Part shown: positions 3,555 to 52,985 of the stretch, in pieces
How positions within the stretch are numbered: position 1 is the stretch's first letter
Layout of the letters: each line of letters begins with the position of its first letter
Source of the DNA: Eledone cirrhosa
Lineage: Eukaryota
Length of the DNA stretch: 64,000 nt
Reading direction: 5' to 3'
Assembly (NCBI GenBank): GCA_964016885.1
Contig: OZ024741.1
Span: 238,824,001-238,888,000 of the forward strand
The notes under the pieces: generated by a model
What the model saw: only the letters and a program-made list of their open reading frames with translations
What the model was told of the DNA's origin: nothing
Databases searched by the model: none
Program-made: the position numbers and the translations under genes

Positions 3555-3770
3555 TTCCGAAGGAAAAGCAAAGGAAATAAATATAACATCATTTTTAACA
3601 GAAACTGTGTCAAAATTAGCTATTCTTGCAGCCCTTCCATAAAATCGAAAATCACCACTGGTAAAACTGACAGAGGAATCCCAGGATGTTCATGCAGAAA
3701 CCCAGGTGAATGTCCTTTGCAAGGCAAATGTAACATTAAATCCGTTGTATATGAGGCAATTATAAGACCT
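3555..3770 (+). pseudogene. Penelope-like RT-linker and start of GIY-YIG endonuclease
   Basis: KYNIIFNRNCVKISYSCSPSI...GCSCRNPGECPLQGKCNIKSVVYEA matches the PLE motifs FNRNTVKxSYS and CxC..CPLxGxC..VVY. Confidence 0.75.
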
Positions 3771-3772
3771 AT

Positions 3773-5546
3773 TCACACCAACCTGCACTTTTTTATACAG
3801 CTGTCATCTTTCATGCGCATCACGTGGCCATACCAACGTAGTCTTCTCTCGAGTAAACAGCATCTGATCCCTCTTATTCCTAATTTCTCACTTAGTTCAT
3901 TTATGCTTTGCCGTTCACGTATATTACTATTACACATCCAACAGAGCATGCATGCTTCGTTCCTTTCCAGTCTACGCAGGTCCTCGGCACGCAATGCCCA
4001 TGTCTCACTGCCATGCAACATTGCTGTTCGTATACAAGCATCATACAATCTGCCTTTCATTTTTAGAGAGAAACCTTTTGTGGCCAACAGCGGTATAAGC
4101 TCTCTGAACTTTTTCCATCCCGTTCTGACTCTGGCTACTGTACTTTCAGAACACCCTCCACCACTGCTGATTTCCTCACCCAGGTAACGGAAAGTGTCTA
4201 CTATTTCTATAGAACCATCTGGGCAATAGAAGGGGCTAGTATCCTGTGGGCACTTGCTACCTATTGCACCTGAGCATGGGCCACATATAAAGTCTACGTT
4301 CTTAGATAGTTTACCTGTGATCCCACTACATCTTTTATGTACCCATACTTTGCATTTGGGACATAAAATTGAATTTCTGCCTACTCCTTTCCTATACACT
4401 GAGCAAGGCCATTTCCCTGAGGGTACCTGTACCTTATTTTTCTTTCTAGAAACTAGGACTTTAGTCTTAGACAAGTTAACTTTAAGGCCTTTTGATTCTA
4501 GGCCATGCTTCCATGTGTGGAATTTCTTTTCTAGTTCAACCATTGATTCAGCTATGAGCGTTAGATCATCTGCGTATAGGAGTTCCCATGGGCAGCCAGT
4601 CTTGAACTCCTCTGTTATAGCCTGAATGGCAATAATAAATAGGAGGGGGCTAAGGACAGAGACTTGGTGAACACCAACTTTTACACTAAATTCTTCACAA
4701 TATTCATTGTTAATTCTAACCTTACTGACTGTTTCATTATACATAGCTTTTATAGCTCTCACCAGCCATTCATCTACACCTAGTTTTCTAAGAGCCCACC
4801 AGATAATGGAGCGGGGGACTCTGTCAAAGGCTTTTTCCAGGTCTACACAAGCTAAGTAGAGGGGTTTACTTTTAGCTAGGTACTTCTCTCGTAGTTGTCG
4901 TACAAGGAAAAGAGCGTCTGTGGTACTTTTACCTGATACAAACCCAAACTGCATTTCATCTAGATCAATTCGCTCTCTGATTAGTTGCGCTATAACTCTT
5001 TCTGTGACCTTCATGACCTGGTCAACTAACTTAATGCCTCTATAGTTTCCTCTATCTAGAGCATCTCCTTTACCCTTGTAGCAGTTAATGATGATGCTGC
5101 TACGCCAGTCATTTGGTATGACCCCATTATCTATTACTTGGTTAACTATACAGGTGACCATAGTTTGTCCCACCATTCCAGATGCCTTCAACATCTCAGC
5201 AACTATCTCCGAAGGCTCAGCTGCTTTGCCTGTCTTCAAATCTTTGATTACCTTACTTATTATACTACCTTTAACTTGCACCGCTGGTCCTTCTATTGGA
5301 TCGATTTGGGGCAGACTATCTTTTTCCCACTTATTCTCCCCATTTAATAGTCTCTCGTAGTGACACTTCCAGGCTATCTTCTTATCAGCATCAGTGAGAG
5401 CAAGTACACCGTTATCATTACGGACACACTTCTCTCCGACAATATCACGGTTTTCCTTGACACATTGTCTAGCAATCCTGAACACCTCGCGTTTTTGGTC
5501 CTCACGTTGTAGAACATGCTTGAACTTTCTTTCCTCTGCTTCCCTT
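3773..5546 (-). mobile_element. RTE-clade LINE internal fragment, RT domain open (subfamily A)
   Basis: GNYRGIKL, QFGF, DLEKAFDRV, GVHQxSVLSP, LLYADD, RLRWYGHVMRM; the ORF-track N-terminus (5547-5665) is microsatellite. Confidence 0.95.
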
Positions 5547-5893
5547 TTATGTATATGATATATGTGAGTGTGTTTATGTATTTGTATATGTCTGTATATG
5601 TTTTTATATGTGTGTGTGTATCTGTATATATGCGTGTGTATATGTGTATGTCCGTGTACATGCATGTTTGTATATATATATGTGTGTATATATACATATA
5701 TATATATACTTTCCTTTTATCTGAATGTGTGTATGTGTATGTACACATGTCTTTTTCGATATTGCTATATATTTTTTTATTTTTTATATATTATTTTTCT
5801 TACCCTTCTTTTCTTATGTATATTTCCCGTTATTTTTCCAGCCTCACTTCCAATTTTTAACAGATTTTAAATCTCATTTCATACCTTTTATCC

Positions 5894-10869: not shown

Positions 10870-13800
10870 CCTCCCAAATAACCTCCCAAATAACCGACAG
10901 TGACTACATAATTATTGGTCACGTTGGACAACATTGTGACGGCTATGACGGAATCCATGGAGGCTATGGGTTTGGTACTAGAAATGAGGAAGGCTCCAGA
11001 ATCCTGGAATTCTGTGACGCAAATAACCTAACTATCTGTAACACTAACTTCAAAAAACGAGACAATCACTTGATCACCTATAGATCAGGGGAACACGCCA
11101 GTCAGATAGATTATATCCTTACCAAAAGACGTGATAGAGTGTCTGTTGTAAACACTAAATCCCTCCCCCATGAAGAATGCACCTCCCAACATAGACTCAT
11201 AGTCAGCGACCTCATAGTCAGGACAAGACGTACTCGACAACAGAGGAGGATTATCCTCAGGAGAAAACTATAGAAGCTAAAGGACCCCACAACCAGTAAT
11301 AAATTTAAAAGCATATTACTTGATGCTTTCGACAGTAAGGAAGAGCAATTAGAGTCGTACAATATAGAGGAACAGTGGGAATTCCTGAAAGCTAACCTGC
11401 TGAAGGCGGCAGATGAAGTCTGTGGCTGGAGCAGGCCTATAGGCAGGAGGAGAGTAACGTGGTGGTGGAACAGTAAGGTGGAGGAGTCAATTAAGGCCAA
11501 AAAGCAGGCTTGGAAAGGGATGGGGGAAGTAGAGAAGACTTCAAGTGACCAGGAAGGAAGCTAGGAGACAAGTGTACTTCGCAAGAAAGGAAGCAGAGGA
11601 AAGAAAGTTCAAGCATGTTCTACAACGCGAGGACCAAAAACGTGAGGTGTTCAGGATTGCTAGGCAATGTGTCAAGGAAAACCATGATATTGTCAGGGAG
11701 AAGTGTGTCCTTAATGATGATGGTGTACTTGCCATCACTGACGCTGATAAGAAGGTAGCTTGGAAGTGTCACTACGAAAGGCTACTAAATGAGGAGAATA
11801 AATGGGAGAAAGACAGTCTCCCCCACATCGATCCAATAGAGGGACCAGCAGTGCTAGTTGAAGGTAGTATAATAAGTAAGGCAATCAAAGATATGAAGAC
11901 GGGTAAGGCGGCTGGGCCTTTGGAAATAGTTGCTGAAATGCTGAAAGCATCTGGAACGGTGGGACACACTATGGTCACCCGTATAGTTAACCAAGTAATA
12001 CAGAATGGGGCAGTTCCGAAGGACTGGCGTAGCAGCATCATCATTAACTGCTACAAGGGTAAAGGAGATGCCCTAGATAGGAGTAACTATAGAGGCATTA
12101 AATTAATCAACCAGGTCATGAAGGTCACAGAAAAAGTAATACCGCAACTAATCATAGAACGAATTGATCTAGATGAAAGGCAGTTTGGGTTTGTGTCAGG
12201 TAAAAGTACCACAGACGCTCTTTTCATTGTACGACAACTACAGGAGAAGTACCTAGCTAAAAGTAAACCCCTATACTTAGCTTTTGTTGACTTGGAGAAA
12301 GCCTTTGACAGAGTCCCCCGCTCCATTATCTGGTGGGCTCTTAGAAAACTAGGTGTTGATGAATGGCTTGTGAGAGCTATTCAAGCCATGTATAAAGAAA
12401 CAGTCAGCAAGGTTAGAATTAACAACAAATATAGTGAAGAGTTTAGCGTAAAAGTTGGTGTTCATCAGGGCTCCGTTCTTAGCCCCCTACTATTTATTAT
12501 TGCCCTTCAGGCTATAACAGAGGAGTTCAAGACTGGCTGCCCATGGGAACTCCTATATGCAGATGATCTAACGCTCATAGCTGAATCAATGGCTGAACTA
12601 GAGAAGAAATTTCAAACATGGAAGCATGGCCTAGAATCAAAAGGCCTTAAAGTTAACTTGTCTAAGACTAAAGTTCTAGTTTGTAGGAAGGAAAATAGGG
12701 CACTGGTCCCATCTGGAAAATGGCCATGCTCAGTGTGTAGGAAAGGAGTAGGCAGAAATTCAATTTTATGTCCCAAATGCAAAGTATGGGTGCATAAAAG
12801 ATGTAGTGGGATCACAGGTAAGCTAACTAAGAACATAGATTTTATATGTGGCCGGTGCTCAGGTGCAATAAGTAGCAGCAAGTGCCCACAGAATACTAGT
12901 TCATTCCATTGCACAGATGGTTCTATAGAAATAGTGGACACCTTCCGTTACCTGGGTGACAAAATCAGCAGTGGGGGAGGGTGCTCTGAAAGTACAGTAG
13001 CTAGAGTCAGAATGGGATGGAAAAAGTTCAGAGAGCTTATACCACTATTAGCCACTAAAGATTTCTCTCTAAAAATGAAAGGCAGACTGTATGATGCCTG
13101 CATACGAACAGCAATGTTGCATGGCAGTGAGACATGGGCATTGTGTGCAGAGGATATATGCAGACTGGAGAGGAACGAAGCTTGCATGCTCCGCTGGATG
13201 TGTAATAGTAATATACGTGAACGGCAAAGCATAAACGAACTAAGGGAGAAATTAGGAATAAGAGGGATCAAATGCTGTTTACTCGAGAGAAGACTACGTT
13301 GGTATGGTCACGTGATGCGCATGAAAGACAACAGCTGTATAAAAAAATGCAGGGCGATAAAAATAGACGGTAGCCACGGAGTAGGCAGACCCAGAAAAAC
13401 CTGGGACGACTTGATAAATTCCGACCTCACACACTTACACCTCTCCAAGACAATGTCACTGGACCGAGATCTTTGGCGCTACACAGTTATACAGAAGACC
13501 CACCTTGCCTAAGTACAAAGCCAAACCTACAGTCAGTAGGCATCTCTAACAAAATACACCCCCGTCCCACTAACCCCACTCCATCCACACCACCCCCTCA
13601 AATGTGAAGTTATGTTGGTACCATAACATCCAGTCCGAAACAAATGAGGTCACGACAAAAAAAAACACACAGTCCACGCTGTAATGTGGATGTGTAAGTA
13701 ACACGGTAAAAACCTCCCAGTCCACACTGTAAACGTGGTTGGTGTTGGGAAGGGCACCCAGCCGTAGAAAACCCGCCAGACGTGTAGGTGTCATGACAAA

Positions 13801-27537: not shown

Positions 27538-28069
27538 CACATATAATCAATGGCAAAATCTCTCAAAGTCCTTGTTGCTAATCCAGTTGTGTAATCTGAG
27601 GGAAGGTAAAGAATCTAAAGATTGGTGATGATAAGGCAAAGGGTGTTTAATATAGCAAACGATGAGTTAGAAAAAACAAAAAAAAACATGTCTGAATACA
27701 GTAAAAACTGAAATTAGTTTAATGTTCAATATTCTTTCTTGTTTTTGTTTTTGTTCCTTCATTCAATATATATATATATATATAGTGAAAGATTGAAGAG
27801 TAACATGGTCGGCTGTACAACAAGGGGCTTTATTTCAGGTATTAACAATTGTTTCATTGATCAGGTGAGTCTACAGGCCGCTAATCGCTGGAAGTTGCAT
27901 CACTCGATCTCCAATACGTTATTTACTTCTGATCAAATCCTTATTGTACAGTCAACGATGTTACTCTTCAATCTTTGTGTTGTTTCCTTGAGCAAGACAC
28001 TTTATTTCACATTGCTCCAGTTTACTCAGCTGTAGAAATGAGATGATAGGGACTGGGGTTCATATCATT

Positions 28070-37515: not shown

Positions 37516-38806
37516 TCATCATCATCATCATCTTCGTTTAACTTCCATTTTCCACGCTAGCATGGGTTAGACGGGAGTTGTCCCACTTGAGGCAAGGTTG
37601 GTCGGGTGACCGTGTCTCGCTCATATAAGACTATCTGGCAGGTGTTCTATGGCTGGATGCCCTTCCTAGCACCAACCACATTTACAGTGTGGAACTGGGA
37701 ACTTTTTACTGTGTTACCTACACGGCCACATTACATCGTGGACTGTGTTTTTTCTCGTGACACCTACATGATCTCGATCTCATTATCTCAATTATTTGGA
37801 CTGGATGTTGTGGTACCAACTTTACAGAGAGAGAGGGGGGTGTTGGTGGGAGTGGGAGGATAGGGTAGGGGTAGTGGATTGGGGTGTATATTTGGTTAAG
37901 AGGTGCCTACTGACTGTAGGTTTCGCTTTGTACATAGGCAAGGCGGGTCTTCTGTATTACTGCGTAGCGCCAAAGATCTCAGTTCAGTGACATTGTCTTA
38001 GAGAGGTGCAAGTGTGTAAGGTCGGAATTTATCAGATCATCCCAGTTTTTTCTGGGAATACCTACTCCGTAACTACCATCAATTTTGATCGGCCTGCACT
38101 TTTTTTATACAGCTGTCATCTTTCATGCGCATCACGTGGCCATACCAACGTAGTCTTCTCTCAAATAAACAGTATCTGATCCCTCTTATTCCTAATTTCT
38201 CACTTAGTTCATTTATGCTTTGCCGTACACATCCAACGGAGCATGCATGCTTCGTTCCTTTCCAGTCTGCGCAGGTCCTCTGCATGTAATGCCCATGTCT
38301 CACTGCCATGTAGCATTGCTGTTCGTATACAAGCATCATACAATCTGCCTTTCATTTTTAGAGAGAAACCTGTTGTGGGCAACAGCGGTATAAGCTCTCT
38401 GAACTTTTTCCATCCCGTTCTGACTCTGGCTACTGTACTTTCAGAACACCCTCCACCACTGCTGATTTCGTCACCCAGGTAACTGAAAGTATCTACTATT
38501 TCTATAGAACCATCTGGACAATAGAAGGAGCTAATATCCTGTGGACTCTTGCTACCTATTGCACCTGAGCATTGGTCACATATAAAGTCTACATTCTTAG
38601 ATAGTTTACCTGTGTTCCCACTACATCTTTTATGTACCCATACTTTGCATTTTGGACATAAAATTGAATTTCTGCCTACTCCTTTCCTACACACTGAGCA
38701 TGGCCATTTCCTTGAGGGTACCTGTGCCTTATTTTCCTTTCTACAAACTAGGACTTTAGTCTTAGACAAGTTAACTTTAAGGCCTTTTGATTCTAGGCCA
38801 TGCTTT
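37516..38806 (-). mobile_element. RTE subfamily A 3' part with 3' UTR and (GAT)n tail
   Basis: KTKVLV..WPCSVC..FSYLG..GWKKFREL..RLRWYGHVMRM; (TCA)n at 37516. Confidence 0.92.
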
Positions 38807-38829
38807 ACATGTTTTTAATGATTTTAAAT

Positions 38830-43161: not shown

Positions 43162-45210
43162 TCATCATCATCATCATCACCGTTTTACGTCCGTTCTTCC
43201 ATGCTAGCATGGGTTAGACGGGTTGTCCTGTTGTGGGCAGTGTCTGGTCGGCTGACCATGCCTTGCTCATACAGGAACTGATCTGGCTTGATTTCTACAG
43301 CTGGATGCTCTTCCTAACACCAACCTCATTTACAGTGAGTGCTGGGTGCTTTTTCGTGGCGCCTACACGTCCACTTTACAGTGTGGGCTGGGTGCTTTTT
43401 TTGCCGTGGCACCTCTACGACCACCTTGCAGTGGGAGGGCGTGGGGGCATATTGTCTATATGCTTCAGCTTGTACCCATGGGAGGTCGGGTACTCTGTAT
43501 TACTGCATGACGCCAGAGGTCACAGTCGTGTGTCACCGCCTTTGAGAGGTGTAATTGGGTAAGGTCGGCTTTTATCACCTCATCCCAGGTCATCTTGGGT
43601 CTCCCCACTCCGCGGTTTCCATCAACTTCTAGTGCTCTACACCTTTTTATGCAGCTGTCATCCTTCATACGCATCACATGTCCATACCAACGCAACCGCC
43701 TCTCCTGCACACAGCATTTGATTCCTCTTATGCTCAGTCTCTCTCTCAATTCATTTATGCTTTGTCGTTCGCATATATTACTATTACACATCCATCGGAA
43801 CATGCAGGCTTTGTTTCTCTCTAATCTATGTAAGTCTTCCACCTTCAGCGCCCAGGTCTCACTACCATGTAACATTGCTGTTCGGATACACGCATCATAC
43901 AATCTGCCTTTCATTTTGAGGGAGAAGCCTTTTGCAGCTAGCAGTGGTAGTAGTTCCCTAAACTTCTTCCATCCCGTTCTTACCCTAGTTATTGTACTTT
44001 CTGAACACCCACCTCCGCTGCTAATTCGGTCACCTAGGTAGCAGAAGCTGTCTACTGTCTCTACAGAGCCCTCCCAGAGATTGGTGGTACTTGTTTCCTG
44101 TTGCTGTTTGCTGCTTGCTGTCCCAGTACAGCTGCTGCATGATGTGAAGCCTACATTCTTAATTAAGCTTCCTGAGATCCTGCTACATCTCTTGTGTACC
44201 CATTGTTTGCATTTGGGGCAGGGAATGGAGTTCCTACCTACACCTTTCCTACATACTGAGCAAGGCCATTTCCCTGAGGGGATATGGGTTCTGTTTTCTC
44301 GTCTACTTACAAGGACCTTAGTCTTTGTCATGTTGACTTTGAGACCCTTTCTTTCTAGTCCCTGCTTCCAAGTTTGGAATTTCTTCTCTAGTTCTACCAT
44401 AGATTCAGCTATAAGTGCGAGGTCATCAGCATACAGGAGTTCCCATGGGCATCCGGTCTTAAACTCCTCCGTTATTGCCTGCAGAACTATGATGAACAGG
44501 AGAGGGCTAAGAACAGAGCCCTGGTGGACCCCAACCTGTACGCTAAATTCCTCGCTATACTCATTGCTAATCCTAACTTTGCTGACTGCTCCCCTATACA
44601 TGGCTTGTACAGCTTTCACAAGCCATTCATCTACTCCTAGTTTTCTAAGAGTCCACCAGATTACAGCACGTGGAACTCTGTCAAAGGCTTTCTCGAGATC
44701 GACGAATGCCAGGTAGAGTGGCTTACTTTTAGCTAGGTACTTTTCCTGTAACTGCCTCACAAGGAAGAGGGTATCAGTGGTGCCTCTTCCTGGTACAAAC
44801 CCAAATTGCATCTCATCTAGTTTCACCCAGTCTCTAATCAACTGTGCTATAACTCTTTCTGTTACTTTCATGACCTGGTCCATCAGCTTTATACCTCTAT
44901 AGTTTCCTCTATCGAGTGCATCACCTTTACCTTTGTAGCAGTTGACAATGATGCTACTGCACCAATCTTTTGGTATGACACCTTCTAGTATTACCTGGTT
45001 AACAATATGTGTGGTTATAGTGTGACCTACAGACCCAGATGCCTTCAGCATCTCGGCAGCTATACCCGATGGACCGGTTGCCTTCCCCATCTTCATATCT
45101 TTGATTGCCTTACTTACTACGCTGCTGCTGACTTGTACTGCTGGCCCCTCTATAGGGTCTACTTGGGGTAGGGTCTCTTCTTCCCATGCATTCTCCTCAT
45201 TTAGTAATCT
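43162..45210 (-). mobile_element. RTE subfamily B, 5'-truncated, RT open (543 aa) with 3' UTR
   Basis: GNYRGIKL, QFGFVPG, DLEKAFD, GVHQGSVLSP, LLYADD, RLRWYGHVMRM; (TCA)n tail at 43162. Confidence 0.95.
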
Positions 45211-46859
45211 ATATGTATCTATATATCTATTTTTGCTTTTGTTATTTTTTATTCTATTTTTATATAAATATAATTTTTAAAAGCATACATAATGTCTGTA
45301 CCTTTGTTTTTATTAGAACATTTTCAGGTTGCTTAAGTAAATAAGCCCACTTTTATGCTTATATATAAGTATTTGTGTATGTGTGTATTAGTATTATGTC
45401 TTTGTATGTCTGTGTATATTTGTGTGTATGTGTATATGTGAGCATATAGTATATGCTCATGTATGAGTGTCGGAATTTTTGTTTATCTATATACATAAAT
45501 ATATATGTAGACATACATACATATGTTCACACATACACACACACACCTACATGCACGCATACATACATACATACATTCATACATGTGTGTGTGTATGGGT
45601 GGATGGGTGTGTTCAGGTGTGCATGTATGCAAGCATTGATTAAAATCATCTGAGTTAGATGTAGTGAACTGTTTGGAAAAGTAACTGTAGAGACTAAAAA
45701 AAATACTTAAAATCTTCTTTCTAGGAAGAAACTAAATTGACATTATTGTCTGAAAGAGACATAACAAGGAACACATAATTACATAGAAGAGTCACTAGAG
45801 AGATTGATTATTTAAGGGTTAAAAGTTAGATTATTTTGTGTGGAGAACAGAAGAACGACTATATTAAAGTGTAACCATTATGTCAAAGGGTAACATATAA
45901 GTTATAAATATATGTACAGTGTAAAGAATCTAGAAAATTAGAGAGAACTACCTTGAAAAGTAGAATAACAAAGAACATCTCTGACAAATTTATAAATCAG
46001 ATTTGTATATTATACAACATGAAGATACTTTAAATTGATAATTTACATTTAACAAAGTTTTTTGTTATCCTTTCCAGCATTTCAAAATTTCTTGAAACTG
46101 GAAAGCTTTTTGTTTAACCTTTTTATATGATCTTTCTAAAAGTAATGGACAATTTAATATTCTATTCATTAAAGTTTCCTGGACTTTTTCATTTGTATAG
46201 ATTCACAAATTTCTCACAGATAACCAAAGTTTGGAATATTTATGTACCAAACCTTTTCGATTTATTTATTTTAAGCAGTCAAAGAAAAAAAAAAATTAAC
46301 ATCACTTTTATTTTGTGATGTTCAACATACCAAATTAATAACCTGGGACTGTGGGGTTGTTAATCTTTGTCTCTCCATTAAATATACCTGGTTAGAAAAA
46401 TGTTGTTTCAATCCTGAGTTTTCTTGTTTAGGTTGTTGAAGTCCCCTTTTAACATCTACAAAATAATGTGTTCATAATAAAAAAAAATGTTATATTAATT
46501 TACTAGCCCTGGCTTATATATGTTAAATATGCACCATTTGAAGGACAATATGTAACTTGGAAATTTTACTATTTTTACTATTTTTGCAGTCTTACAATAT
46601 TCATTCACATGCAAACAAATGTATATAGAAATCAGTAAACTAATGAAATAACCATCATAACAAATGTATTTTTAGTATTGATTACTTTTTAATAGATTTC
46701 TCTTTAAAATAATTCATTTTCAAAAGATATAATATTTTTATGAAGTTACAAGATTTTGTATTTACAAAATTTTGTATTTATTTCCTTAATATGATATTTG
46801 AAATGAAGAATATATTAAGTATTCAGTGCATGTGTTTATTATTATCATTAACTAAAGAG

Positions 46860-49445: not shown

Positions 49446-49472
49446 CACATACAGACACACACATTTATAAAC

Positions 49473-49546
<74 letters not shown>

Positions 49547-49713
49547 GGGGTAACAAATAATAGTTATATGCAGTCCACTTAGGTGTAGTCCAATTATGGT
49601 ATTCCGGGTAGTGGATGATATCAACGCTTGGCTAAGTTTGACTCAATAAGGCGTTTCCATAGTGATGCTGCGAGTACGCTGTAATTCCTATGTTATAAAC
49701 ACTTGGAGTAATA

Positions 49714-50167
49714 ATAAATCAGGAAAGAAGAGTGACACGGTTTGCTATACAAAAAAGGTTTTTAATCTCATTGCTGACAATTGTTTCTCTGAACTGGTAG
49801 GTCTAGAGATCGCTATCCGCTTATTTTCGCGTTACTCGATCGCCAATACAAAATTATAACCAGTCAGTTCATCGGAGCAACGCATCCCTTCTCGACCACG
49901 GCTGCACTTGCCATTCCGCCACTCTTGTCCTGTAATCCGGGTATCTCACTTCCTCTCCTTTCTCTTTAATATACATACTTTAATATATATACTTTCTCGC
50001 AAGCTCCGATGAACTGACTGGTTATAATTTTGTATTGGCGATCGAGTAACGCGAAAATAAGCGGATAGCGATCTCTAGACCTACCAGTTCAGAGAAACAA
50101 TTGTCAGCAATGAGATTAAAAACCTTTTTTGTATAGCAAACCGTGTCACTCTTCTTTCCTGATTTAT
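49714..50167. repeat. Apparently perfect 165-bp inverted repeat (49714-49878 / 50003-50167), 124-bp spacer
   Basis: The same peptide appears on both strands in the ORF track; arms are complementary by eye. Confidence 0.95.
49769..49882 (-). ncRNA. Type I hammerhead ribozyme with CCGAUGA core and ~80-nt stem II (second copy on + at 50003-50110)
   Basis: CGTTGCT CCGATGA aCTGACTGGT...ACCAGTTCAGa GAAAC AATT GTC AGCAATG. Confidence 0.75.
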
Positions 50168-50614
50168 ATATAATAAAGTGGTCCTTCATCAGTGATCTTC
50201 CAACCATCATCGGTATTTCTTCGCTTTAAAGACCATATACCTCCGGTTGGTGCGAGCAACGGCTAAAGAAAGTCGTTGGGACATGTAAATAAAGGGAACA
50301 GCGAGAGTGTAAACAAACAAAGAGGGTGAAGCAATGAAAAGTGAGGAAGAGCGAGTCAAGTCCAAAAATTTCCATGAATATAAGTTCGGTGAAATCGTGA
50401 ACGAGAGAGAATAAAGACCATCAAACCTGGTTTAAATGTGAGCAAGGAAGGAATTCCGTACAGATCTAACGTGAGGAAGAAGGGGTCTAGTCTGTGAAAT
50501 CGGTAAACATAAGTTCTGTGAAATCGTAGATGAGAGAGAGAAAAAATGCCGACATACAGACACACATTTATAAACATATATATATATATATATACACACA
50601 CACATATATAAACA

Positions 50615-50662
<48 letters not shown>

Positions 50663-51289
50663 ATATGTATGTTTATATATTGTTATACTTGGGGGGAGGG
50701 TCATATTGTTATAATATTGCCAGAAATAATAACAGAACACAGTCACTGTTTATCATTGATTGACCAGCGGTTAAAAATACAGATATAAATGTATATATAT
50801 AGACTATCAAAGTTCTTTTGTCGCACATCCGTGACATCATCAGTGGTGCTATTATGTTTCCTCCCATTGTATTGTAAAGTTTATGCCATTTTTATTTTAT
50901 TTATTTATTCATGTATTTCCTCTTGTCCCTGTCTCTGCGCATGCATTTGCATGTGTGTGTTCATGTTTGAGTGAGAAATAAATAAATAAATAAAATAAAA
51001 ATGGTGTAAACTTTACAATACAATGGGAGGAAACAATAGTACCACTGATGATGTCGCAGATATGTTATGAAAGAACTTTATACATATATATAAATATATT
51101 CATTTATATATATATATATGTATATGTATGTTTATACAAATAAATAAATATATATATATATATATTTATTAAAATAACAGATTAAAGTTTAAGAAAAGAA
51201 TCGCTGCTTTCATCCTTAACGGGATCTTCTGAAACTATAAAATTAATCTGTGAACGCAGAAGTAAATATTTCGAAAAACGTTGAAGACA

Positions 51290-52985
51290 GCTAAGATCTT
51301 TCTCTCCCTTATTATGAAGCATCCCCCCCCCCCCCCAGCACATAAATATAGTAACATTTTTAATAGAAATACCACTAAAATTTCTTACTCTACGATTCTT
51401 AACCTTGCACAGCTTCAAATTTAGCTAAATTACCTAGCCGTAGGAACACGTGCAACCCTGTAGCTAGTACTAACTGTAATTGTAGGAATCGGGCTGACTT
51501 CCCCCTATCCGGGAAATGCCTCTATAGTAACATTGTCTACAAATGTAAGGTTGAAACACCCACGTCCCGTAGGGCCTACATAGGGTTAACCGCCAATAGA
51601 TTCAAGCAGCGTCTTTACATGCATACCCATTCTTTTCTTAACCCTTTAAGAAGGAATGTGACGTCACTTTCAGCTTATATCTGGAGTCTAAAAGACAACG
51701 ACACCCAATATAAGTTACACTGGGAGATCCTAGCTAGGGCTAGATCGTATAACGGAAATAAAAAACCATGTGACCTCTGCGCCGCTGAAGCCATGGAAAT
51801 ACTCTACGCCAAAGACCACATCTTAAACAAAAAATCTGAGGTAATTTCGGCTTGTAAACATAAATTGCACAAAACTTTCGTGTATTACAGCCCCACGTTA
51901 TAACCTAATGGATAGTACGAACTATACGCGTATAATTTACGTCTTGATGTGGTAGCTAAGTATATTTTATGTTTATACCACATTACTTATTTGTATAGGT
52001 AAGTATATATTACCTGTATGTTTTGTGTAGGTACGTATACTTTCTCGTATATATATTTGCTTGTATATGTTATAGCATATATATTATATTATATATACTG
52101 GTACATGTGCATATGGTTATGTGTATACGTGAGTTTTGCGTCTGTGTGAGTATGCGGGTTCGCACGTATGTAGGGTGTGTGCATTTGTGAACTTTGTGTT
52201 TTGGTTGACGTAGTTTTGCGAACATATGTGTATTTACATGTAGATATGTGTGTGCAGCATTATATACGTATTTATGTGTGTGTATTTATATACGTTTATT
52301 TAATTATATGTATACACGCACACACACACATATATATATATATATTTCTTATTTATATTTTTATGTGTATTTCGTGTATACGTTCGTATGTGTGCGGGTA
52401 CAGGCGTTGCGTGGGTTCTGTAAGTGCGCGCGTGTTTTTGTGTACGTGCTCGTATTTGCATACCCAAGGCGGGTGTTTTCGCGTATGCATGTGTATTTAC
52501 GTATATGGATGCGTGCATGTTTATATTTTTGTTGATTTCAATTACCTCTGTTATTTATTTACATTATTCATAACTCTGAAGCCGAGAATCATTCGGTTTC
52601 CTAAATAGAATTTTAGTCTACGACTTCATTTATACCATAAACGTGAATTTGTCTTTGTGTGTAATTGTTTTCTCTGCTCCAAATAATGACGTATTATCTT
52701 CATTTTTTTTTGCCGTTCTTTGCCAGGGAACGTTTCCACGAACCAAAGTATCGTCTTCCTGTCGTCCTTCGGTTGCAACGTTTTTTGAAATATTTACTTC
52801 TGCCTTCTCAGATTGATTTTTTTAGTTTCAGAAGATCCCGTTAAGGGTGAAATCAGCGATTCTTTGCTTAAACTTTAATCTGTTATTTTAATAAATATTT
52901 GCTCTACGGTTCTTATATATTTGATATATATTTTCCTTATCAAGCCCTCTTTGGATTTTAGTCTTCAATTTTATTATTATTACTA
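51290..52985 (+). mobile_element. 5'-truncated Penelope-like element: RT-linker, GIY-YIG (to 51903) and long 3' UTR; inverted terminal fragment at 51165-51285
   Basis: HKYSNIFNRNTTKISYS..CNCRNRADFPLSGKCLYSNIVYKC..AYIGLTANRFKQRLYMHTHSF..TSLSAYIWSLK..WEIL..CDLCAAE..LNKKSEVISACKH. Confidence 0.9.

Follow-up and report, generated by a model that had tools for sequence, protein, structure and literature searches.

Inverted, 5′-truncated copies and optional tails are described as general features of Penelope-like elements (Craig et al., 2021; PMC8557442). Purified PAc is reported to cleave and extend both strands, to start at two RNA sites and to accept uncleaved RNA, its insertion in vitro being unaffected by ribozyme mutants (PMC11167929). 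Hammerheads of pseudo-LTRs show low activity in vitro (Cervera and de la Pena, 2014; PMC4209133), and U4C occurs as a natural hammerhead variant of a viroid (cited in Perreault et al., 2011; PMC3088659). Non-circularly permuted hammerheads were published in 2023, in an account of six block orders in which CUGAnGA is assumed to be unseparated from stem II and type CSG comes from two sequences (Eckert et al., 2023; PMC10085705). The Naiads, a further group of elements, were described as lacking a canonical hammerhead; eight of them were marked ‘HHR_half_core’, a mark left uninterpreted (Craig et al., 2021; PMC8557442).

The stretch analysed here (the window, 64,000 nt in all) was compared with the whole 3.0-Gb genome, probably that of a cephalopod to judge by its size, its richness in TA and its resemblance to Octopus elements in print. 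It holds a perfect inverted repeat of two 165-nt arms (49714-49878 and 50003-50167) separated by 124 nt, as claimed in a first-pass annotation of this DNA. It is highly probable that two mobile-element ends meet at this locus. The inverted repeat would consist of outward-facing, 5′-truncated 3′ ends of a Penelope-like element with Hydra-clade motifs (family A), likely the product of a single insertion in which both strands of a cut (TA)n served as primers, and each end would carry a type I hammerhead motif predicted to be weak and to cut as a dimer. Adjoining it would be the end of a non-coding repeat (family C) with a rearranged hammerhead-like fold predicted to cut after AUA. The inverted repeat is real and largely ordinary, and the adjoining family C motif matters more; the first-pass annotation had recorded neither the host element nor the complete rearranged motif that surrounds a second core in a different repeat.

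In ascending coordinates, the locus begins with the 168-nt family A tail (49546-49713, minus strand), which ends in (TA)n and, in a longer copy, runs into the start of an ORF. Arm 1 (49714-49878, minus) is a 5′-truncated family A pseudo-LTR copy that starts 3 nt before C3 of the hammerhead core; its type I motif spans 49769-49882 (minus), the outer 4 bp of stem I being filler DNA. The filler itself (49879-49993; 115 nt) separates the two family A copies and is foreign to the family. Arm 2, with 9 nt of native upstream sequence, forms the second copy (49994-50167, plus), which has the short 3′ end without a tail, its core at 50006-50012 and C17 at 50105. A short (TA)n (50168-50171) forms the junction of the short ends of families A and C, followed by a 5′-truncated family C copy (50172-50553, minus). 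The latter belongs to a non-coding tandem repeat of ~637 nt ending in (TA)n and includes the rearranged S-G-C hammerhead-like motif (50181-50282, minus). A near-identical direct repeat of ~32 nt (49447-49480 and 50552-50583) brackets the compound A + C insertion and may be target flank that was duplicated. At about 50856-51034 (within 50843-51090) lies another inverted repeat, with CTGATGA starts on both strands at its flanks that belong to a further hammerhead family, apparently a decayed one.

The family A element and its type I motif

DNA searches returned 1,659 first-look candidates for family A, the best 40 scored being 99-100% identical over the arm, and the 23-mer at its 3′ end has 841 exact genome matches. 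Longer copies carry a ~860-nt UTR and an RT-GIY-YIG frame upstream of the motif (with KADKTSN, GSNDSAQ, YRDD, CNCHLPDRC, YIGS, CGLC and CRH), giving a length of ~3.6 kb from ~2.4 kb of ORF, 0.86 kb of UTR, the arm and the tail. The order of RT and then C-terminal GIY-YIG is seen in fragments at loci L031, L036 and L121-L123. At L031 the ORF starts anew after the 168-nt tail, in a frame with SLKNIPIP and an N-terminal RWK motif (RRVRWKAY). The DKG motif is changed to DKT (KADKTSN in L036 and L123), the CxCX5C linker reads CNCHLPDRC, and CGLC..E..N..CRH is present in L123 and L036. Two alternative 3′ ends lie 168 nt apart, and almost every end at 33 family A loci is followed by a TA run. No unbroken full-length ORF was present in the family A loci examined, and Pfam gave nothing relevant on the GIY-YIG and RT fragments. 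Judged by these motifs, family A matches the definition of a Hydra-clade Penelope-like retroelement and is young; an assignment to Naiad was rejected because the endonuclease is C-terminal.

Other remnants of mobile elements lie in the same window. Hydra-like GIY-YIG remnants (CxC linker, VY, YIG) occur at 51403-51903 (plus) and 3555-4187 (plus), with no relevant Pfam match. Non-LTR retrotransposon RT frames are present at 3773-5716, 11533-13512, 38209-38814 and 43465-45276, and in the one scanned with Pfam (11533-13509) RVT_1 and a PHD finger were found.

In the minus copy, the hammerhead motif comprises the core CCGATGA (49875-49869), an 81-nt stem II domain (49868-49788), GAA (49787-49785), a palindromic stem III (ACAATTGT, 49784-49777, the same palindrome being present in each arm) and C17 (49776). 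The CCGAUGA core with its long stem II, and the presence of a ribozyme core on both strands, had both been proposed at first pass and hold at the DNA level. The core is not a chance match, because a 21-mer over it has 187 exact genome matches and the reversed control has 0. Further, the folding energy of the stem II domain is -23.7 kcal/mol (z -3.0), a value as low as this being reached by 2/500 shuffles.

Conservation of the core was assessed on the first 100 of the 841 3′-end matches, all on contig C1, an unbiased sample that also served for the breakpoints. Among the 75 copies with a whole core, position 4 is C in 66 and T in 9, a departure from the C3-U4-G5-A6-N7-G8-A9 consensus, and the C4 version of the core 21-mer has 187 exact matches as against 3 for T4; C4 is therefore no private feature of this copy, a possibility raised at first pass. 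A second departure had been overlooked: 10.1 and 11.1 are both A (75/75 and 81/84 sampled copies, respectively). GAAAC is kept in 80/84 and GTC in 79/84, and with them G12-A13-A14, A15.1-U16.1 and H17. The 7-bp stem I proposed for the minus copy does form there but is private to the window, as CGTT precedes GCT in none of 28 other loci, almost all of which read ..TCGCAA-GCT. The native stem I consists of 3 bp and an extension with a bulge; stem III is 2 bp long, reaching 8 bp in a dimer. The minimum-energy fold is not a hammerhead: as a monomer the hammerhead is 3.3-6.8 kcal/mol less stable, and a linked double hammerhead is 4.8-6.0 kcal/mol less stable, although such energies are a weak test of an active fold, since the models ignore tertiary contacts. 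Rfam gave no match at the gathering threshold over the 64-kb window, and at E up to 10 across 49500-51200 a hammerhead was absent, the matches being below-threshold hairpins of miRNA type.

A sister family (family B), ~70% identical to family A, is represented in the window by a truncated copy (27773-27936, minus). Its core is mostly CTGAGGA (CCGAGGA in 4/30 loci), with U-U at 10.1/11.1, a 5-bp stem I unlike that of family A and an 82-nt stem II. The base of stem II covaries between the two families; RNAalifold on 11 rows gave 18 pairs, 8 of them with double-sided change, some of which comes from two decayed copies. Families A and B thus form a natural U4C versus U4 pair that is suited to assay. 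Type I motifs with a palindromic stem III are also present at L003, L005, L017, L019, L044, L046, L057, L075, L081, L083 and others, and the stem II domains of 20 representative type I motifs range from 11 to 96 nt. CCGANGA recurs in L003, L005 and L044, so that C4 is found in at least two further families of this genome.

Comparison of the copies supports the family A motif as type I hammerhead-like, and measurable cutting is judged slightly better than an even prospect. Slow, dimer-dependent cutting is predicted because U4C is combined with A-A at 10.1/11.1 and with a palindromic stem III of 2 bp. A less probable, though still serious, reading takes the motif as a catalytically dead relic that is kept for protein binding or priming, the long stem II being its functional part. 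Both core departures are fixed or nearly so in the family, yet U4C, though slower in vitro, supports viroid infectivity (PMC3088659), and mismatches at 10.1/11.1 are common in published Hydra hammerheads (PMC8557442). GAAAC and GTC have remained intact at the frequencies given above, even if the youth of the family lessens the force of this observation. In the predicted fold G8-A9 is sequestered, none of the 100 sampled copies starts at the cut site, and the reported insertion by PAc is indifferent to ribozyme mutants (PMC11167929), whereas in sister family B the same insert goes with a core that has stayed canonical.

A rearranged hammerhead-like motif in family C

The motif of the adjoining repeat reads, in minus-strand order, IIa′ (50282-50279), hairpin P0 (50278-50257), the 5′ strand of stem II (50255-50252), IIIb (50250-50245), stem III with U16.1 (50241-50237), H17 (50236, the predicted cut following AUA), stem I (50235-50231), a 6-nt linker, the 3′ strand of stem II (50224-50221), GAAA (its GAA at 50219-50217), III′ (50216-50212), IIIb′ (50205-50200), I′ (50197-50193), CUGANGA (CTGATGA, 50192-50186) and IIa (50184-50181). 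All core elements of a hammerhead are present in the non-circular order S-G-C, and stem II is relayed through two helices inserted after A9. The CTGATGA had been placed at 50182-50188 at first pass and taken as cut just before the arm; its position was wrong, and the end beside it is the usual one, 15/15 other loci ending there within 1 nt.

The genome search gave 2,266 candidates for family C, of which 40 were scored. Units lie 637-639 nt apart with one ribozyme motif each, and a short end is found along with a tailed end in (TA)n. A pattern with GAAA ahead of CTGANGA has 2,652 genome matches as against 2 for the control. After removal of shortened, internally deleted and near-duplicate copies, 22 full-length motifs of the family C type were aligned. 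In these, 90.3% of cells pair and 19/32 pairs show double-sided changes; none of 500 shuffles reached these values and slid controls pair in 27-45%, with the qualification that these very sequences had served for drawing the structure by eye and that shuffles ignore kinship. Stem I is 97.3% paired with double-sided change in 3/5 pairs, stem III 94.5% with 2/5, and IIIb shows such change in 5/6; further pair types in the motif do not exceed the shuffles (56/500). The core letters hardly vary, with CTGANGA in 21 copies, GAAA in 22, U16.1 in 20 and A or C at H17 in 21. In the best register, IIa forms 81/88 and the relayed stem II 73/88 pairs, values reached by 0 and 1 of 5,000 partner swaps, respectively. 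RNAalifold recovers only P0 and IIIb, and stem II is the weakest helix of the motif.

Other assignments were considered and set aside. A plain SGC arrangement, with stem II directly after CUGAnGA, gives 35/88 pairs in the best of 4 registers, and the strand before GAAA pairs with the upstream strand instead. Type II hammerhead, pistol, HDV-like and hairpin ribozymes were dismissed by eye against their consensus motifs. A strict S-G-C descriptor returned 3 matches (0-1 per shuffle) and missed family C through its G-U limit, while a pattern built from Naiad_Ovul gave one decayed match.

Family C has no ORF of its own. An autonomous partner or a Naiad ORF with an N-terminal endonuclease was found within 6 kb upstream of the motif at 0/20 loci, and the ORF behind the motif in L104/L118 was rejected as a partner since it belongs to another element, beyond a (TA)n run. 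Within L118 (1906-5132), a different Penelope-like ORF combines PPKF, LRW, RT and GIY-YIG, the last at the C terminus, with an asparagine-rich N-terminal insert. The same rearranged motif recurs in other non-coding families (L099/L100 and L116/L117), in tandem units of ~510-530 nt. Family C may be a retrozyme-like passenger of Penelope-like machinery.

[quoted passage not shown] As IIa would abut P0, the entry from A9 and the exit to 10.1 would fall at one nick of the coaxial helix, a geometry that appears compatible with the core. On balance, the family C motif is somewhat more likely than not to cut itself. It is less likely that it is a structured 3′-end signal for retrotransposition, hammerhead-derived and non-cutting, in which the extra helices break the core. 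The failure of the plain SGC stem II fits that reading, as do published alignments, from which insertions of more than 1-2 nt adjoining CUGAnGA are not known (PMC10085705), although by eye a clean type-CSG is found in two nematode Naiads and S-G-C in a spider Naiad. Nor is there an excess of copies that start where cutting is predicted: the search gave 15 matches of which 8 are junctions, and compared like for like the count is 3 as against 2 at the control position. The letters that stay invariant across diverged families are, however, the catalytic ones, and N7 and H17 vary as they do in hammerheads.

Origin of the inverted repeat

The layout of the inverted repeat is the usual one for the family. 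Outward-facing pairs are present at 17/33 family A loci (three of which were chosen for being pairs, while one is the window), and 16 of them were scored as one tailed and one short end; the 17th (L008) was scored short + short, its tailed copy having an internal deletion and an outer end that is tail. The other 16/33 loci lack a pair and were mostly seen in 3-kb stretches. The duplication and its two-strand arrangement, regarded as special at first pass, thus correspond to a textbook inverted, 5′-truncated Penelope-like insertion.

Some details of the breakpoint were corrected. The plus copy, taken to start at 50003, matches family A back to 49994, which makes the minus copy the more truncated of the two. 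The claim of a breakpoint at the ribozyme edge holds in that 5′ junctions cluster just upstream of the ribozyme, but the direction of truncation had been read wrongly. Among 75 copies, the 20 nt before C3 contain 16 junctions and the preceding 20 nt contain 4, the cluster lying 5-16 nt before C3; P is 7.5e-8 when the upstream rate is the reference and 0.027 when the adjacent bin is, and a few of the copies seem to duplicate a single event. Probably, a transcript starts at this cluster, at the initiator-like TCATTC within it; palindromic microhomology around AGCT is an alternative source of the cluster. Cut-site starts in copies without C17 (6/24 fetched loci from 27 matches, with a background of ~0.3% per base) were not taken as a cleavage footprint; several of them arose by microhomology.

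The filler has one other place in the genome, a 91% paralogue (L087, contig C25) that reads GCGATGCT where the window has CGTT next to arm 1 and that has GCT in common with the arm at the junction. Positions 49890-49955 of the filler have zero depth in four read runs (X1, X4, X13 and X14) in which both families are present, and these runs contain no read spanning the locus, so that the exact allele is without read confirmation.

A plausible sequence of events would begin with an endonuclease cut in (TA)n, followed by reverse transcription from two RNA sites, one per DNA strand. The two cDNAs would then be joined head to head, here by way of 115 nt from another template and GCT microhomology. 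The template RNA would be uncleaved, because copies run through the cut site. If the breakpoint cluster marks the RNA 5′ end, through an internal start at TCATTC, the ribozyme would come first in the transcript. Read-through RNA at this locus would fold back on itself over 165 bp and hide the motif, which would leave the duplication with no ribozyme function of its own. The tailed and short ends of each outward-facing pair would provide a clean genomic signature of two-strand, two-start priming in Penelope-like insertion.

Two other explanations of the inverted repeat carry very little weight. A locus-specific two-strand ribozyme switch or hairpin-RNA gene, towards which the first-pass annotation leaned, is most improbable: the arms are 100% identical and the minus copy forms a 7-bp stem I, but the identity is a matter of youth (over the arm, eight unlinked copies likewise show 100% identity), the same layout is found at 16 further loci and the stem I extension is filler. 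Equally remote is an assembly or amplification fold-back, the artefact considered at first pass, for although the arms match perfectly and coverage of the filler is absent from the four runs, the two copies have different outer ends and reach different distances 5′, a diverged foreign sequence separates them and the rule of one tailed and one short end applies family-wide.

Comparison with described systems

Family A resembles the Hydra clade (for example, Hydra-1_Obim) in RT followed by GIY-YIG, in RWK, DKT, CxCX5C, CxxC and CxH, and also in targeting (TA)n, in having a type I hammerhead motif close to the 3′ end and in its inverted 5′-truncated copies; the 10.1/11.1 mismatch, frequent in that clade, is likewise present (PMC8557442). 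It differs in length (~3.6 kb against <3 kb, which is a tendency only), in a tail of 168 nt rather than 30-40 nt, and in combining CCGAUGA with an 81-nt stem II, where every Hydra row of File S2 shows CUGANGA with a short stem II (PMC8557442). With pseudo-LTR hammerheads it shares the type I order and a palindromic stem III implying dimers, and enlarged helix II, natural core variants and opposite-strand pairs 100-700 bp apart are also described there; the available text gives no counterpart to U4C with an 81-nt branched stem II (PMC4209133). U4C itself, a variant in a viroid (PMC3088659), is carried here by most copies of a retroelement family and is seen again in at least two others; a separate literature search on U4C returned nothing.

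Family C is akin to type SGC in its S-G-C order, 5-bp stem I, short linker between stems I and II and conserved core (PMC10085705). Its linker, however, has 6 nt rather than ~3, and the 5′ strand of stem II is located upstream, with IIa and P0 connecting it to A9, whereas in type SGC it directly follows CUGAnGA (PMC10085705); the RNA ends of family C therefore fall inside block C. On this arrangement, family C is not classed as type SGC. It is also a high-copy animal repeat, and the word ‘animal’ is absent from the main text of that account (PMC10085705). Non-LTR retrozymes are similar in being non-coding tandem repeats with one motif per unit and Penelope-like ends, but have type I hammerheads and ~300-bp units, as against the permuted motif and 637-nt unit of family C (PMC7229834; bioRxiv 10.64898/2026.07.22.740005).

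Family C also bears a likeness to the Naiads, which carry an N-terminal EN ORF, whereas family C itself is non-coding and, at 20 loci, an ORF of Naiad type was not found next to its motif. Six Naiads in the supplement of PMC8557442 (five of the eight half-core entries and Naiad_Obim, which is not among these) were read, by eye only: Naiad-3_Nbra and Naiad_Hpol have a clean type-CSG, and Naiad_Smim, Naiad_Esco, Naiad_Obim and Naiad_Ovul have S-G-C. Three further Naiad 3′ ends in that supplement show no permuted layout by eye, and the literature searched gave no description of permuted hammerheads in Penelope-like elements. The 3′ ends of Naiad_Obim and Naiad_Ovul follow, by eye, the helix order of family C, upstream hairpin included (PMC8557442). 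The chances are about even that many Naiads carry permuted hammerheads (CSG in nematodes, S-G-C in a spider and in cephalopods) and that thousands of retrozyme-like repeats in this genome share self-cleaving motifs whose wiring lies outside the six published permutations, with the RNA entering and leaving through a helix pair between A9 and stem II. If so, the catalytic core would tolerate a two-helix insertion after A9, and permuted hammerheads by the thousands in an animal genome, together with the Naiad consensuses, would explain the ‘half core’ puzzle of 2021.
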